64,000 nucleotides of DNA from Escherichia phage teqhal. Numbering within the stretch: the first letter of the stretch is position 1; each line of letters starts with the position of its first letter. Below, piece by piece: positions 18,855 through 34,078 of this stretch. The stretch lies in sequence record MN895435.1. One strand, 5' to 3'. Position numbers and translations under genes: made by a program. Below the pieces are notes generated by a model. The model saw only the letters and a list, made by a program, of their open reading frames with translations. It was not told where the DNA came from and searched no databases.

Positions 18855-20948
18855 ATGGAACTCATTACAGAATTATTTGACGAAGATACTACTCTTCCGA
18901 TTACAAACTTAAATCCAAAGAAGAAAATACCACAAATTTTTTCAGTTCACGTTGATGATGCAATTGAACAACCAGGCTTTCGTTTATGTACCTATACATC
19001 TGGAGGTGATACTAATCGCGATTTAAAGATGGGCGATAAAATGATGCATATTGTTCCTTTTACATTAACTGCTAAAGGTTCAATTGCTAAATTGAAAGGT
19101 CTTGGTCCAAGCCCAATTAATTATATCAATTCAGTTTTTACTGTTGCAATGCAAACAATGCGTCAGTATAAAATTGATGCCTGTATGCTCCGTATTCTTA
19201 AGTCTAAAACTGCTGGTCAAGCTCGACAAATTCAAGTTATTGCTGATAGACTTATCCGTAGTCGTTCAGGTGGAAGATACGTCCTTCTTAAGGAACTCTG
19301 GGATTATGATAAAAAGTATGCATATATTCTTATACATCGCAAAAATGTATCACTAGAAGACATTCCAGGAGTTCCGGAAATTAGTACCGAGCTCTTTACT
19401 AAGGTTGAATCGAAGGTCGGTGATGTTTATATCAATAAAGATACTGGAGCTCAAGTAACTAAAAATGAGGCAATTGCAGCATCTATTGCACAAGAAAATG
19501 ATAAACGTTCTGACCAAGCTGTAATCGTTAAAGTTAAAATTTCCCGTAGAGCAATTGCACAAAGTCAGTCATTGGAATCTTCTAGATTTGAAAGTGAATT
19601 ATTCCAGAAGTATGAATCTACCGCAGCTAATTTCAATAAACCTGCTACTGCTCCTTTAATTCCCGAAGCAGAAGAAATGAAGCTTGGAATTAATTCATTA
19701 GCTTCTAAAACTAAGGCAGCAAAAATTATTGCCGAAGGAACTGCGAATGAACTTCACTATGACTATAAATTCTTTTCAAAAAGTGAGGTTAATGAAGTTT
19801 CCGAAAAAATTAAAGATGTAATTCTTAATGCGATCAAAAATGAACCAACTACTTCAATAAAATGTTTAGAGAAATACGCAGCAGCTGTCAATCAATTCTT
19901 TGAAAAATATAAAGATAATTGGCTTGATAAACATAATAAAACTCGTAAAGGGCAGCCAGATGAAGTCTGGGAAGAAATAACTAAAAATTCCTGGAACGCA
20001 GCAAAAACTAAATTCCTCAAACGAATGATTTATAGTTTTTCTGGAATTGGTGCAGGCCCAATGATTGATATTACTATTGCCCGCGATGGTTCTAAATATA
20101 CTCCATCACAAAAGCGTGGCATTAGAGAATATTGCGGTTCAGGATATACTGACATCAATAATCTTCTTTTAGGTCGTTACAATCCAGAACGATATGATGT
20201 AATGAGTGAAAAAGAAATTGAATCTGCTATAAATAATTTAGATTCAGCTTTTGAAAATGGTGACCGTATACCAGAAGGCATTACAGTTTATCGTGCTCAA
20301 AGCATGACTGCTCCTATATACGAAGCACTAGTTAAAAATAAAGTGTTCTATTTCAGAAATTTTGTATCTACTTCTTTAACTCCTATCATTTTTGGACGTT
20401 TTGGAATTACACATGCTGGTATTGGTCTTTTAGAACCAGAAGCTCGTAACGAATTAACGGTTGATAAAAATGAAGAAGGAATAACTATTAATCCAAACGA
20501 AATAAGAGCGTATAAAGAAAATCCTGAATACGTTAAAGTTCAAATAGGATGGGCAATTGATGGAGCTCATAAAGTTAATGTTGTATATCCAGGAAGTCTC
20601 GGAATAGCAACAGAAGCTGAAGTTATTCTACCGCGCGGATTGATGGTTAAAGTTAATAAAATAACTGATGCTTCTAATAATGACGGAACCACGTCTAATA
20701 ATACAAAACTCATTCAAGCTGAAGTTATGACCACAGAAGAACTCACCGAATCGGTAATCTATGACGGAGACCATTTAATGGAAACCGGCGAAGTAGTTGC
20801 AATGACAGGTGATATTGAAATAGAAGACAGAGTTGACTTTGCATCATTTGTTTCATCAAATGTTAAACAGAAAGTAGAATCATCTCTTGGAATTATTGCG
20901 TCTTGCATAGATATTACAAACATGCCTTACAAGTTCGTTCAAGGATAA
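18855..20948 (+). CDS. alt: Alt-family ADP-ribosyltransferase (capsid-packaged), copy 1
   Basis: 697 aa from MELITELFDE...; C-terminal R-S-ExE motifs (YRAQ, VSTSL, EAEVILPRG). Confidence 0.85.
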   Translation: MELITELFDEDTTLPITNLNPKKKIPQIFSVHVDDAIEQPGFRLCTYTSGGDTNRDLKMGDKMMHIVPFTLTAKGSIAKLKGLGPSPINYINSVFTVAMQTMRQYKIDACMLRILKSKTAGQARQIQVIADRLIRSRSGGRYVLLKELWDYDKKYAYILIHRKNVSLEDIPGVPEISTELFTKVESKVGDVYINKDTGAQVTKNEAIAASIAQENDKRSDQAVIVKVKISRRAIAQSQSLESSRFESELFQKYESTAANFNKPATAPLIPEAEEMKLGINSLASKTKAAKIIAEGTANELHYDYKFFSKSEVNEVSEKIKDVILNAIKNEPTTSIKCLEKYAAAVNQFFEKYKDNWLDKHNKTRKGQPDEVWEEITKNSWNAAKTKFLKRMIYSFSGIGAGPMIDITIARDGSKYTPSQKRGIREYCGSGYTDINNLLLGRYNPERYDVMSEKEIESAINNLDSAFENGDRIPEGITVYRAQSMTAPIYEALVKNKVFYFRNFVSTSLTPIIFGRFGITHAGIGLLEPEARNELTVDKNEEGITINPNEIRAYKENPEYVKVQIGWAIDGAHKVNVVYPGSLGIATEAEVILPRGLMVKVNKITDASNNDGTTSNNTKLIQAEVMTTEELTESVIYDGDHLMETGEVVAMTGDIEIEDRVDFASFVSSNVKQKVESSLGIIASCIDITNMPYKFVQG

Positions 20949-27759: not shown

Positions 27760-28879
27760 TTTTAACCTTAACTGGGTCTATTGTTTCCAGTTTCGTTGCA
27801 TTAGTGAACATATATAGATGAGTTACTGAATTATTATTGGATAATTCATGGATAACTTCATCAACGTAAAATTCTGTTTTAAATTGGTTTTTACTATCAT
27901 TAAAAATAATTTTAACGCCAGGAGTCAAGTTAAAATTACCGACAGTAGAACATTTAGCATAGCCGTCATATTGTGCCATAGTTTGAAGACGAATAGCTTC
28001 TTCATATCCATTCCTATAAGTCATTTCAGAATAAGCACCTGACCTTGACACTACAATAGAGTTTTCACCCTTTCCTGTAGTAATCATTGGTAATGAAGAA
28101 TCTAAAAATGAATGCGCATAGATAGTAGCGTTTTTCATTGGATCACGTTTGTGAGGATTCGATTTAGTCAACCAAACGAAATCATATGCTAATGGATATT
28201 TTAATTCTTGGACAAATTGACCTATTAAAGATGGCTCACCGACAATCATTGGATATGGTTCTTGATTTATCATCATATCATAGTCCATCATGTTAACTCC
28301 CATGATGTCTTGCCATACAAATACAAATTTGTCGCTTCCTACAGCTAGAGCAACTTCTCTTACATATGACAAATAGTTTTCAAATGTGCTAGTCCATGGA
28401 ATATCAGGAACATAAGCATTTATAGCATTTATTGCTGGAGTTAATAATGTACGGTCTTGATAAATGACACCAAGCATTTCTTTTATAGATTCACCTGCAT
28501 CAGGGAAAAATGGTCTACCAAATTTAAGATTTTCTATAGAATGAATAGTTCCCAATTCAATAGCAATGATGTTATCACCTTTTGAATCTACTGACACGGA
28601 AAAATGCTTACATCCATAAATTCGTGTTTTAACATTATTAATATCATTTGCATTAGCTACAGAAATCTGAATTATTTCATTTCCATCCATTTTTGTATGG
28701 ATGTTTTTAGAATCATAAAATTGCAGCATTCCTTCATTTCGGCCATAAAGAGAATCCCGCATAGTTAATGTAGTAATAGTAGCAGCTAATTCAACAAATC
28801 TATTATTACTCCAAGCGTCGTAGCTATCAAATAATTTAACGCTGAGATTTGGATATCCGGGGCGTTGCAACATACTCAT
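27704..28879 (-). CDS. 27: baseplate hub subunit
   Basis: 391-aa ORF; size and position as T4 gp27. Confidence 0.9.
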
Positions 28880-29628
28880 TATTGTTTATCCTTCTCAATC
28901 AGTTTTAATACGAATCCGCGCTCAGCAGGAATCATTTTCATTATTGAATTTAAGCTATAATTACTTTTTACGAGTGTGTGATTAATTTGATAAAAAGTAA
29001 ATATCTCATCTGGGTTAACTAATAGCTTAAACACGTCTACTATATCAGTGTATTTTTTAATGTACTTATTACAGCATGACATATGTAGAGTTAAATTAAT
29101 AGGATTCATTGCATCGAGAATTTTTTCTAATGTTTCTATCTCGATAGCATCAACAAGTTCTATTTGACTTGATTCACTAATTTCCTTCCAATCATACCAA
29201 ATTTCATCTACTTGGACGGAATGAATATTTTCAGTAATCATCTTTGCTTTATTTTCATAAAACTCAGAAGGAAACTTTAATTTAATTTTAACATTAGCTA
29301 CATCAAAAACAGGTTCCTTTAATTCTTTTTGATATATTTCAAATGGAACTGTCTTTTCTTTTTTACATTTTGGACATACAAATGTGACCGGTACTTTAGT
29401 TTTACCTATTGACCCTACAAATACCTGCAAAAATATAAATGGTTGCCAAGTCTTCGGATAGTCTCCAAAATAATCATCAATTAAATCAGTAATTATTTCT
29501 TTTTGTTCTTGTGGTGACCGATGCTCTATATCGTTTCGAACTAACAAAAAATCTCGATAATCTTCTACCGTAAATGGTTTAAAACGATGAACACCATCTG
29601 GTAATTTACAACGAATAATGTTTGCCAT
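28879..29628 (-). CDS. 51: baseplate hub assembly catalyst
   Basis: 249-aa ORF; size and position as T4 gp51. Confidence 0.88.
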
Positions 29629-29645
29629 AGATGCTCCTTTTATTC

Positions 29646-29653
29646 TATTTATA
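29646..29653 (-). promoter_or_regulatory. late promoter for gene 51 (TATAAATA on minus strand)
   Basis: TATTTATA on plus strand, 18 bp upstream of the gene 51 start. Confidence 0.7.
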
Positions 29654-29657
29654 AATA
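29650..29657 (+). promoter_or_regulatory. late promoter for gene 26 (TATAAATA), overlapping the divergent gene 51 promoter
   Basis: TATTTATAAATA contains both orientations; 21 bp upstream of the gene 26 ATG. Confidence 0.7.
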
Positions 29658-29678
29658 TGATAAATAAAGGAGCTAAAT

Positions 29679-30305
29679 ATGTATGAATACAAATTTGACG
29701 TGAGAGTTGGTTCTAAAATAATCAACTGTCGCGCATTTACTCTTAAAGAATATCTAGAACTTATTACTGCTAAAAAGAACGGTTCAGTAGAAGAGATCGT
29801 TAAAAAGCTAATTAAAGACTGTACAAATGCAAAAGATTTAAACCGCCAAGAATCAGAACTATTGTTGATTCATTTATGGGCGCATTCTCTTGGAGAAGTT
29901 AATCATGAAAACTCCTGGAAGTGCACCTGCGGAACTGAAATACCAACCCATATAAATCTATTACATACACAAATAGATGCACCAGAAGACCTCTGGTATA
30001 CACTGGGTGACATTAAAATTAAATTCCGATACCCTAAAATTTTTGATGATAAAAATATAGCCCACATGATAGTATCATGTATAGAAACGATTCACGCTAA
30101 CGGGGAAAGCATTCCAGTTGAAGACTTAAATGAAAAAGAGTTGGAAGATTTATATTCTATCATCACAGAGTCAGATATTGTAGCTATAAAAGATATGCTT
30201 TTAAAGCCTACTGTTTATTTGGCTGTTCCAATTAAGTGTCCAGAGTGTGGAAAAACTCACGCTCATGTAATAAGAGGGCTCAAAGAATTCTTTGAGCTAT
30301 TGTAA
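29679..30305 (+). CDS. 26: baseplate hub subunit
   Basis: 208-aa ORF; size and position as T4 gp26. Confidence 0.85.
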
Positions 30306-30703
30306 TGGCAAATATTAATAAGCTTTATTCTGACATTGACCCAGAAATGAAAATGGATTGGGACAAAGATGTTTCAAGATCTCTTGGATTAAGGTCAATT
30401 AAAAATAGCCTTTTAGGAATTATTACAACCAGGAAAGGGTCAAGGCCATTTGACCCAGAATTTGGATGCGATTTATCTGATCAGCTTTTTGAGAATATGA
30501 CTCCTCTTACTGCTGATACTGTTGAGCGTAACATTGAAAGCGCAGTAAGAAACTACGAGCCACGTATTGATAAATTAGCAGTTAATGTAATACCGGTTTA
30601 TGATGATTATACTCTAATAGTAGAAATACGCTTTTCAGTCATCGATAACCCTGATGATATTGAGCAGATAAAACTGCAACTGGCTTCTAGTAACAGAGTA
30701 TAA
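30305..30703 (+). CDS. 25: baseplate wedge subunit (gp25, lysozyme-like fold)
   Basis: 132-aa ORF; size and position as T4 gp25. Confidence 0.88.
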   Translation: MANINKLYSDIDPEMKMDWDKDVSRSLGLRSIKNSLLGIITTRKGSRPFDPEFGCDLSDQLFENMTPLTADTVERNIESAVRNYEPRIDKLAVNVIPVYDDYTLIVEIRFSVIDNPDDIEQIKLQLASSNRV

Positions 30704-30729
30704 TGCTTCACGTATAAACGTGGTATAAT
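30702..30729 (+). promoter_or_regulatory. middle promoter (MotA box AATGCTTCA plus -10 TATAAT) upstream of uvsY
   Basis: MotA box 30702-30710, 13-nt gap, TATAAT 30724-30729. Confidence 0.65.
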
Positions 30730-31183: not shown

Positions 31184-31407
31184 TGAAATATAGCATTGAT
31201 GATGCTTTTAATTATGAAGAAGAATTCGAAACGGAAATTCAATTCTTAATGAAAAAGTATAATCTCAAGCGTCAGGATATTCGTATCCTGGCCGACCACC
31301 CATGCGGTGAAGATGTACTTTATGTTAAAGGAAAATTTGCTGGATATCTTGATGAATATTTTTATTCTAAAGATATGGGTATTGATATGCATATGAGAGT
31401 TATATAA
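31183..31407 (+). CDS. hypothetical protein (74 aa, T4 uvsY.-1 position)
   Basis: ORF. Confidence 0.6.
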   Translation: MKYSIDDAFNYEEEFETEIQFLMKKYNLKRQDIRILADHPCGEDVLYVKGKFAGYLDEYFYSKDMGIDMHMRVI

Positions 31408-31410
31408 ATA
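31403..31410 (+). promoter_or_regulatory. late promoter motif TATAAATA
   Basis: Exact TATAAATA 25 bp upstream of the small ORF at 31436. Confidence 0.55.
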
Positions 31411-31435: not shown

Positions 31436-31603
31436 ATGTCAGATAAGATTTGTGTTGTCTGTAAAACTCCAATCGATTCTGCATTGGTTGTTGAAACAGA
31501 CAAAGGTCCTGTACATCCTGGGCCTTGTTATAATTACATTAAAGAACTACCAGTTTCAGAAAGTTCGGAAGAACAATTAAATGAAACACAACTTTTGCTA
31601 TAG
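31436..31603 (+). CDS. small Cys-rich protein (55 aa, CxxC...PGPC; T4 uvsY.-2 position)
   Basis: Hand-translated MSDKICVVCKTPIDSALVVETDKGPVHPGPCYNY...; SD agaggag 31423-31429; below ORF-track length cut-off. Confidence 0.6.
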   Translation: MSDKICVVCKTPIDSALVVETDKGPVHPGPCYNYIKELPVSESSEEQLNETQLLL

Positions 31604-31657: not shown

Positions 31658-31888
31658 TTAAAAGCTTTCTTCTACTTCATCGTCTGAATCTTCTAATTCA
31701 GCTCTTTTTCCTGCCAAAGCATCTCTCACAGAGATGTCATCAGTATCTTTTAATTCAGTTTCTTTAACTCTTTTCTTATAATAAGCTTCAAGTTCTTCTA
31801 GACCTTCTATCGTTTGACAAGAGGCAATTTTACCCATAAATTCATCAATAGAAGCTTCATAAAGAAATTGTTTAAATTCTAGTAACAT
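31658..31888 (-). CDS. uvsW.1: UvsW.1 (76 aa from ATG; track ORF starts at upstream TTG)
   Basis: MLLEFKQFLYEASIDEF...; acidic C-terminus; immediately downstream of uvsW. Confidence 0.8.
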   Translation of the reverse strand: MLLEFKQFLYEASIDEFMGKIASCQTIEGLEELEAYYKKRVKETELKDTDDISVRDALAGKRAELEDSDDEVEESF

Positions 31889-31900
31889 CTTTTTCTCCAA

Positions 31901-31914
31901 AGGGCCGAAGCCCT
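31901..31914 (-). other. hairpin between uvsW stop and uvsW.1 ribosome-binding site
   Basis: agggc-cgaa-gccct. Confidence 0.4.
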
Positions 31915-33422
31915 TATAAATTAACTGTTTTCATTACGTAATTAAATTTTTCATCTGCGTAGCGCTGAATACGATCAATGCCGTGTTTTAAAAGATAGTT
32001 CAAATGAACATATTTCTTTTTCGTATTAGCAGATTTTGGCTTAACACCACAATCATCTATGAGGTCCCAGACTGTTGCTATTGTCTTAGAACCATGCTTA
32101 CGTAATACACGACCGATTGTTTGTAATACAATGATTTTTGATTTAACACCGTGCGCTAAAACAACGTGATGTAGATTTTTAACTGAAATACCAGTAGAAA
32201 ATACACCATAACTAGCTACTATAATTATTCCTTTACCGTTTTCAGCTAAGGTTTTCATTACATTGCGGGTTTCGGTATCAACTTCCCCTGATACGTAATA
32301 AACTTTATCATATTCATTTTTAATTAAATCGAAAATAGCTTTACCATGTGATACATGCTTAAACATGACAAAAGCGTTTTCATCTTTTTGTGCAAGCCTA
32401 ATAGCTAATTTAGCGATCCATTTATTTCTTTTACTGAGCCCAGTAATAATTTTTATTTCTTCTTGGTAAGTTTTTCCCTTTAATTTAGTAGTGAACTCAT
32501 CGGGATAGCGAAGAAAAATACTATTAATTTTTAACTCAGTTACTTGTCCATCTTCCATTAATTTAGAAGTCGTTACTGGCTTAAATATTTCGCCAAACAT
32601 TCCAACATACTGCATGATATTAGCTTTGCCATCACGTAATGAACCAGACAAACCAAATTTAAACATGCAGTTATTTAAACCTGATATGATAGATGAAATA
32701 CTTTTTCCTGTAGCAAGATGACATTCATCATTCATCATCATTCCAAACTGTGAGAACCATTCTTTTGGTTGTTTTACTACAGTTTGCCATGTACCAACAA
32801 CGACTGGTGCATCATTTTTATATTTATCATCTTTTGATGCTCCACCGCCGATTTTCTTTATCATTGCATGACTGAATAAACGATAGTCAACAAAGTCATC
32901 AGCCATCTGAGTTGTCAGAGCAGTTGTTGGAACAATGATAAGAATTTTACCTTCATAATTTTCCAAATAATATCGCGCAAGCAAAGCTTGAATTAAAGAT
33001 TTACCTGCAGATGTTGGAAGATTAAGAATTCTACGACGATTAACTAATCCTTCGAACACTGCATCTTTTTGATACCAGTGTGGTTCAATTCTTTTATTTC
33101 CTGAATAGATTTCTAATTTAGAAAGCCATTCATCAAAATCTTTTCTTGATAATTCTTCTTTTTCGTTAATTTGCGGGTCAATCCAGGCTTTATAGCCAAA
33201 GTTATCACAGAACTTTTTAATTTGCCCGACTAAGCCGAATGGAAGAAGACGATTATAATCTAAAAGACGGATTCGTCCATCCCAGTTGCCATATCTGAAG
33301 CGAGGATTAAACCTATATCCATCGGCCTCAAACGAAAAGAAATCTCTTAATTCGTGGAACGTGCTCTCTTCACAATCGATGCGTACATGGCTGAAGTCGT
33401 GAAAATGTACTTTAATATCCAT
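31914..33422 (-). CDS. uvsW: UvsW DNA/RNA helicase (SF2)
   Basis: 502-aa ORF; Walker A TSAGKS, DECH box (NDECHLATG); matches recalled T4 UvsW. Confidence 0.93.
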   Translation of the reverse strand: MDIKVHFHDFSHVRIDCEESTFHELRDFFSFEADGYRFNPRFRYGNWDGRIRLLDYNRLLPFGLVGQIKKFCDNFGYKAWIDPQINEKEELSRKDFDEWLSKLEIYSGNKRIEPHWYQKDAVFEGLVNRRRILNLPTSAGKSLIQALLARYYLENYEGKILIIVPTTALTTQMADDFVDYRLFSHAMIKKIGGGASKDDKYKNDAPVVVGTWQTVVKQPKEWFSQFGMMMNDECHLATGKSISSIISGLNNCMFKFGLSGSLRDGKANIMQYVGMFGEIFKPVTTSKLMEDGQVTELKINSIFLRYPDEFTTKLKGKTYQEEIKIITGLSKRNKWIAKLAIRLAQKDENAFVMFKHVSHGKAIFDLIKNEYDKVYYVSGEVDTETRNVMKTLAENGKGIIIVASYGVFSTGISVKNLHHVVLAHGVKSKIIVLQTIGRVLRKHGSKTIATVWDLIDDCGVKPKSANTKKKYVHLNYLLKHGIDRIQRYADEKFNYVMKTVNL

Positions 33423-34070: not shown

Positions 34071-34078
34071 TATTTATA
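34071..34078 (-). promoter_or_regulatory. late promoter (TATAAATA on minus strand) upstream of the seg-like gene
   Basis: TATTTATA on plus strand 29 bp upstream of the minus-strand start. Confidence 0.55.

Follow-up and report, generated by a model that had tools for sequence, protein, structure and literature searches.

Two genes for the baseplate hub of Escherichia phage teqhal stand head to head in the stretch of record MN895435.1 analysed here (64,000 nucleotides, called the window below), and their start codons are separated by a spacer of only 50 bp. Gene 51 is read leftward and gene 26 rightward, and the spacer has the layout ...CATAGATGCTCCTTTTATTC TATTTATAAATA TGATAAATAAAGGAGCTAAAT ATG..., in which TATTTATAAATA is a perfect palindrome of 12 bp. 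The original prediction had called the two flanking genes 51 and 26, and both identities are borne out by their position and annotation in T4 and by PF12322 matches to both products. Pfam matches confirm gp26 and gp51 together with gp25 and gp27, and in the T4 gene order 25 and uvsY lie beyond the 26 side while 27, 28, and 29 lie beyond the 51 side. A region of 1.3 kb around the site is 95–99% identical to about 500 Tequatrovirus genomes and, in T4 itself, about 98% identical. The 50-bp spacer is 100% identical to that of T4, including the boxes described below, both Shine-Dalgarno sequences, and the start codons. The T4 copy of the palindrome is located at AF158101 116450–116461, and no promoter features are annotated at the 51–26 spacer in the T4 GenBank record. 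Coordinates of the features are collected in Table 1.

Table 1. Positions, in the window, of the features at and around the 51–26 spacer
Feature	Position	Strand	Detail
Gene 51, baseplate hub assembly catalyst	28879..29628	-	249 aa; PF12322, E = 4e-55
Gene 26, baseplate hub subunit / assembly chaperone	29679..30305	+	208 aa; PF12322, E = 4e-64
Palindrome TATTTATAAATA	29646..29657	both	12 bp, perfect; two overlapping late-promoter boxes
Late promoter box TATAAATA, P26	29650..29657	+	-13 to -6; serves gene 26, with gene 25 downstream
Late promoter box TATAAATA, P51	29646..29653	-	-13 to -6; serves gene 51, with genes 27 and 28 downstream
Predicted late start, gene 26	29662..29664	+	+1 at about 29663, A; 16-nt leader; -13 to -6 rule applied to the sequence
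Predicted late start, gene 51	29639..29641	-	+1 at about 29640, A; 12-nt leader; -13 to -6 rule applied to the sequence
Shine-Dalgarno region AAAGGAGC, gene 26	29666..29673	+	right arm of a perfect 8-nt inverted repeat
Shine-Dalgarno region AAAGGAGC, gene 51	29633..29640	-	GCTCCTTT on the + strand; left arm of the same repeat
Second late box GATAAATA, one mismatch	29659..29666	+	gene 26 side, 1 nt past the palindrome
Imperfect 48-nt palindrome	29628..29675	both	nearly the whole intergenic region; 24-nt arms, 71% complementary
Position of the internal in-frame product 26'	30018-30305	+	begins with ATT (Ile); GGGTGA before it
MotA-box-type middle promoter	30702-30729	+	AATGCTTCA, 13 nt, TATAAT; upstream of uvsY (30770)
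Exact TATAAATA in the uvsY region	31403-31410	+	25 nt upstream of the next ORF
55-aa ORF (uvsY.-2 in T4)	31436-31603
80-aa ORF (uvsW.1)	31658-31900	-
502-aa ORF (uvsW)	31914-33422	-

The two gene products are related to each other. The gp51 and gp26 sequences share 20% identity over 161 aa (E = 9e-6) and are both members of PF12322 (T4_baseplate). Because they fall in the same Pfam family and align with each other, genes 51 and 26 are judged from their sequences to be distant paralogs placed head to head, an arrangement suggestive of either an inversion or an ancient inverted duplication. Slopekvirus 05F has genes 51 and 26 in tandem on a single strand.

Several other features are seen on the gene 26 side. 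At the position of the T4-annotated internal product 26', the window has ATT after GGGTGA, and the non-AUG internal start is therefore conserved here. The middle promoter upstream of uvsY corresponds to the oriF/uvsY region annotated in the T4 record AF158101. Further along, an exact late box precedes the 55-aa ORF, and it is likely, from its placement in the sequence, to be a late promoter for a small conserved gene within an otherwise early/middle unit. On the other strand, uvsW is represented by a 502-aa ORF and a separate 80-aa ORF. The gene is split in most annotated relatives, whereas in the T4 record it is a single CDS of 587 aa, annotated with a remark about discrepancies in the sequence.

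Late boxes and predicted leaders in the 51–26 spacer

In the late transcription of T4, host RNA polymerase carrying the sigma-like protein gp55 reads an 8-bp box at positions -13 to -6, and initiation is activated by gp33 and by the sliding clamp gp45, which sits at the upstream end of the complex. The T4 late promoter is described as consisting solely of an 8-bp TATA box, which precedes the start by about one helical turn; a -35 element is lacking, and of the 50 sites listed for T4, 32 are perfect (PMC2988020). Published consensus sequences place the box at -13 to -6 and tolerate A at -13 (PMC1524935; PMC2988020).

The 12-mer was predicted to carry TATAAATA on both strands with an offset of 4 bp, and the motif search finds exactly this: the two copies share the bases 29650–29653 and point apart, each toward its own gene. 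The predicted distance of 21 nt from the box to the ATG of gene 26 also stands, while the distance to the ATG of gene 51, given as 18, is counted here as 17 nt, a difference of one base that comes from the counting convention. Both distances are inside the range of 14–28 nt found for the other late boxes of the window. Exact TATAAATA occurs 18 times in the window against 9.0 ± 2.9 expected, and 11 of these 18 are located 14–28 nt upstream of a Shine-Dalgarno sequence and ATG that open an ORF of at least 55 aa. For the exact 12-mer, a single occurrence in the window compares with 0.04 ± 0.20 in dinucleotide shuffles, of which 4 in 100 contained a copy. Furthermore, a window-wide search shows that each orientation of the palindrome is the only exact late box placed to serve its gene: the next exact box upstream of P26 on the + strand is at 20228, 9.4 kb off, and the next one upstream of P51 on the - strand is at 34071–34078, 4.4 kb off.

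When the -13 to -6 rule is applied to the site, the predicted starts fall 23 bp apart, at positions that correspond in T4 coordinates to 116444 (- strand) for gene 26 and 116467 (+ strand) for gene 51. Both predicted +1 positions are A, and the segments that follow the boxes, TGATAA on the + strand and GAATAA on the - strand, are each A/T at five of six positions. Both leaders begin just ahead of AAAGGAGC, and AAGGAG lies 6 nt before the ATG of gene 26 and 5 nt before that of gene 51. The site has the elements of a T4 late promoter, namely an 8-bp box, no sigma-70 match, and late genes with their own ribosome-binding sites close downstream. It also has the mark of an overlapping divergent pair, namely opposed cores that share base pairs.

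A second, one-mismatch box, GATAAATA, is present on the gene 26 side and is conserved in the T4 group only. It is probably not a productive promoter, judging from the sequence, as transcription from it would begin within the Shine-Dalgarno sequence of gene 26.

Other origins of the 12-mer were considered. Chance is rejected on account of the expectation of 0.04 in shuffles and the conservation of the 12-mer across genera. The promoter scan of the site returned no sigma-70-type match overlapping the palindrome, and a sigma-70 or MotA-type promoter at this place is rejected for lack of a match. A DNA cruciform or hairpin made from the 12-mer alone is not credible, as it would consist of six A/T pairs with no loop.

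Conservation of the palindrome and competing readings

The 51–26 spacers of other T4-like genera were compared in an alignment of 11 distinct sequences anchored on the palindrome. The exact 12-mer is found in 11 genus-level lineages: Tequatrovirus, Karamvirus, Gelderlandvirus, Mosigvirus (FL18 and RB69), Jiaodavirus, Marfavirus, Winklervirus, Dhakavirus, Kanagawavirus, Roskildevirus, and Lazarusvirus. In addition, the unclassified Acinetobacter phage LemonAid has a spacer identical to that of Lazarusvirus, with the 12-mer. The identity of gp26 among the carriers goes down to about 41%. All 12 columns of the palindrome are 100% identical in the 11 sequences, the adjoining columns are identical at 30–50%, and outside the 12-mer it is only over the two Shine-Dalgarno sequences that conservation recovers. 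A scan of IMG/VR with T4-type flanks around N12 gave five contigs, all with the exact 12-mer, from relatives too close to be informative. Nearly all of the spacers examined are 46–51 bp long, and those of Acinetobacter phages and Krischvirus are 67–70 bp.

More distant lineages have two opposed boxes in other arrangements. Gualtarvirus carries opposed late-type boxes as TATAAATATTTATA, the Aeromonas phages of Tulanevirus and Biquartavirus have a 10-mer palindrome, TATTTAAATA, and Krischvirus has an exact box facing gene 51 together with a noncanonical box facing gene 26, TATAAAATA, with ACTAAATA 6 bp on. Because the gene 26-facing box is noncanonical in Krischvirus, the exact overlap is not obligatory. 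In the Gualtarvirus member Morganella phage MP1 (1178–1191 of locus L012), the boxes are crossed, each being on the far side of the other, and the late RNAs from them would overlap over the first 26 nt or so. The 12-mer is absent from three lineages in which the gp26 homologue has no divergent neighbour, namely Slopekvirus, Ishigurovirus, and a Kyanoviridae phage.

These observations, taken with the identity to T4, support the original prediction that the 12-mer consists of two overlapping and opposed T4 late promoters, since all 12 positions are invariant in 11 genera. With a probability of roughly 0.9, we conclude that the 12-mer represents the overlapping divergent late promoters P26 (+) and P51 (-), at the same site as in phage T4. 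A one-way promoter constrains just 8 bp, and the conservation of 12 bp therefore fits two working orientations.

A very improbable alternative is that only one orientation works, the other copy of TATAAATA being a side effect of a nearly symmetrical motif, and that the gene on that side is transcribed from elsewhere. Indeed, TATAAATA is nearly self-complementary, so that a reverse copy costs only four more fixed bases. Krischvirus manages with an exact box only toward gene 51, and the list of Nolan et al. for RB49 has a single weak candidate near the region, Pl:106751(+), with a score of 6. However, the four bases that belong to the second orientation are invariant on both sides in the 11 genera, whereas the next bases are conserved at only 30–50%. 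The corresponding positions -17 to -14 are variable at the other late boxes of the window. Moreover, the nearest other exact late boxes that could serve these genes are as far off as 4.4 kb upstream of gene 51 and 9.4 kb upstream of gene 26.

The palindrome might instead be kept mainly as the site of a dimeric DNA-binding protein that regulates both operons, for example T4 DsbA. Operators bound by dimers are classically perfect palindromes, and DsbA is reported to bind A/T-rich sites over late promoters, its sites overlapping two late promoters with weak affinity (PMC2988020). On the other hand, dsbA is non-essential and its product binds at micromolar concentrations (PMC2988020), and the two copies of the late box explain the sequence fully. 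The comparison between lineages also speaks against an operator, as those with a different arrangement retain two boxes and not the 12-mer, and the opposed pair between genes 4 and 48 of Aeh1 is built from that phage's own motif, CTAAATA. We regard this possibility as even more remote than promoter activity in one direction.

Predicted spacer hairpin and proposed divergent initiation

The palindrome is part of a larger symmetrical structure, the imperfect 48-nt palindrome of Table 1, whose arms extend over 29628–29651 and 29652–29675 and within which the two ribosome-binding sites, GCTCCTTT and AAAGGAGC, make up a pair of perfect 8-nt arms. Two Shine-Dalgarno sequences that face in opposite directions are bound to give an inverted repeat, and some of the symmetry follows from this alone. 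A read-through RNA in the gene 26 sense is predicted to form a hairpin of -13.9 kcal/mol (z = -3.3), and one in the gene 51 sense a hairpin of -12.7 kcal/mol (z = -2.6), each with the Shine-Dalgarno sequence paired. RNAs from the predicted late starts give -2.6 and -1.2 kcal/mol and are predicted to be essentially unstructured, with the Shine-Dalgarno sequence free. Longer transcripts would in this way hide the ribosome-binding site, and the late RNAs, which would start within the hairpin, would stay open. A statement in PMC2988022, which cites Gruidl et al. (1991), gives such sequestration of the ribosome-binding site as shown for T4 genes 25 and 26. The hairpin modelled over the spacer matches the known T4 theme of a late promoter placed in a hairpin that sequesters a ribosome-binding site. 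Promoter scans found no convincing early or middle promoter just upstream of the site.

That the symmetry is there chiefly for this hairpin, the 12-mer being simply its top, is the least probable of the alternatives: the folding energies and the sequestration reported for gene 26 speak for it, but the apical A/U pairs contribute little stability, the 12-mer is invariant and not co-varying, the stem between the 12-mer and the Shine-Dalgarno sequences is unconserved, and the inverted repeat arises automatically from the opposed Shine-Dalgarno sequences. The hairpin is better seen as a layer added to the dual promoter than as a rival to it.

For the dual promoter, the following course of events can be proposed. 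Rightward, a polymerase on the P26 box would start RNA at the position given in Table 1, with a leader that carries the Shine-Dalgarno sequence of gene 26; leftward, the box read from 29653 to 29646 would give RNA with the still shorter leader and the Shine-Dalgarno sequence of gene 51. In the late open complex resolved by cryo-EM, the DNA is unwound from -12 to +2, gp33 is on the upstream duplex, and gp45 is at the upstream end (PMC7892883). Transferred to this site, the bubble would cover 29651–29664 on the + side and 29639–29652 on the - side, so that one melted region would end where the other begins. Either complex, through its upstream contacts, would cover the opposite promoter entirely. 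With 4 bp common to both boxes and adjoining melted regions, the site would accommodate a single polymerase at a time. From this geometry we infer that the two open complexes exclude each other and that initiation alternates between the two directions, which makes the competition put forward in the original prediction a reasonable assumption.

The orientation of the gp45 clamp sets the polarity of late-promoter activation (PMC2988020). Since a given clamp has one fixed orientation on the DNA and activates one polarity only, P26 and P51 would, on the basis of this literature, be fed by clamps of opposite orientation.

Most simply, the overlap is a matter of compaction, by which two promoters, their leaders, and their ribosome-binding sites are accommodated in about 50 bp, because nearly all of the spacers examined have a length of 46–51 bp. 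The original prediction had gone further and seen in the overlap a means of coupling or balancing the expression of both operons, which is speculation. It is also conceivable, though unlikely, that the site is a direction switch read by clamp orientation, so that, on any one DNA molecule, the ratio of 51-27-28 to 26-25 transcription depends on the strand in which nearby nicks or Okazaki ends are found. If so, the dosage of the hub genes would be tied to the local direction of the replication fork, oriF being about 1.1 kb away, and the deep conservation of the exact 4-bp overlap, as opposed to just any two neighbouring boxes, would mean that mutual exclusion had been selected for in addition to compactness.

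Comparison with known systems

The dual promoter between genes 51 and 26 is already known, being a classic promoter pair of T4. Overlapping late promoters for divergent transcription of the T4 baseplate cluster were reportedly mapped by Scarlato, Storlazzi, Gargano, and Cascino in 1989 (Virology 171:475). The T4 pair P51/P26 (Scarlato et al., 1989; Gruidl et al., 1991, Virology 184:359) has the same spacer and the same flanking genes as the pair in teqhal, and there is no difference at the site. As an illustration of how compact the T4 genome is, the 51/26 site is of textbook grade, with two promoters, leaders, and ribosome-binding sites in 50 bp. It is also useful as a positive control, as it shows that a reader of sequence alone can find real regulatory sites. 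The additions made by the present analysis are modest: the 12-mer is frozen in at least 11 T4-like genera, distant lineages have other symmetric arrangements, and the genes served are distant paralogs. By themselves, these additions open no new question.

Similar pairs have been listed in other phages. For example, two late promoters of RB69, Pl:118620(+) and Pl:118672(-), were predicted with scores of 12.7 and 11.2 (Nolan et al., 2006, PMC1524935, Additional file 5), and they are located on the RB69 palindrome (118641–118652) between genes 26 and 51. RB69 has the same 12-mer with both orientations scored, as computational predictions only. Together with the conservation of all 12 bases, these predictions lend indirect support to the view that RNA would start in both directions in vivo. 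RB69 differs from teqhal in the flanking spacer sequence, and the gp26 of a phage of its genus, Mosigvirus FL18, has about 62% identity.

A further case is the spacer between genes 4 and 48 of Aeh1, with Pl:122785(+) and Pl:122835(-). Here again opposed boxes form a palindrome in a spacer of about 50 bp between head-to-head late genes, and a Shine-Dalgarno sequence lies on each side, as at 51/26. The box in Aeh1 is CTAAATA, the two copies are back to back and abutting, as TATTTAGCTAAATA, with no 4-bp overlap, and the genes are different. In Aeh1 (AY266303), this 14-nt palindrome is found at 995–1008 of locus L022, and both copies of the motif are predicted late promoters (Nolan et al., 2006). 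Because the RB69 and Aeh1 pairs are both in the list of Nolan et al. (2006), divergent late promoters in the form of a palindrome are an arrangement that recurs and has been catalogued before.

With regard to the hairpin, the T4 genes e, soc, 49, and I-TevI are comparable. In these genes, an inverted repeat encloses the late start and has the Shine-Dalgarno sequence as its 3' arm, and long transcripts fold while late ones do not, as is predicted for the 51–26 spacer. Unlike in e, soc, 49, and I-TevI, the 5' arm of the hairpin is here the Shine-Dalgarno sequence of the opposite gene, so that the structure is symmetric and read-through RNA of both senses could be subject to it.

Bidirectional sigma-70 promoters, which were reportedly traced to the symmetry of the -10 element by Warman et al. 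in Nat Microbiol in 2021, are another parallel. They are alike in having overlapping and opposed elements, of the -10 type in their case, and divergent starts close to each other. Unlike those sigma-70 pairs, the 51/26 site uses the 8-bp gp55 box and activation by the sliding clamp, has no -35 element, and has its predicted starts 23 bp apart.
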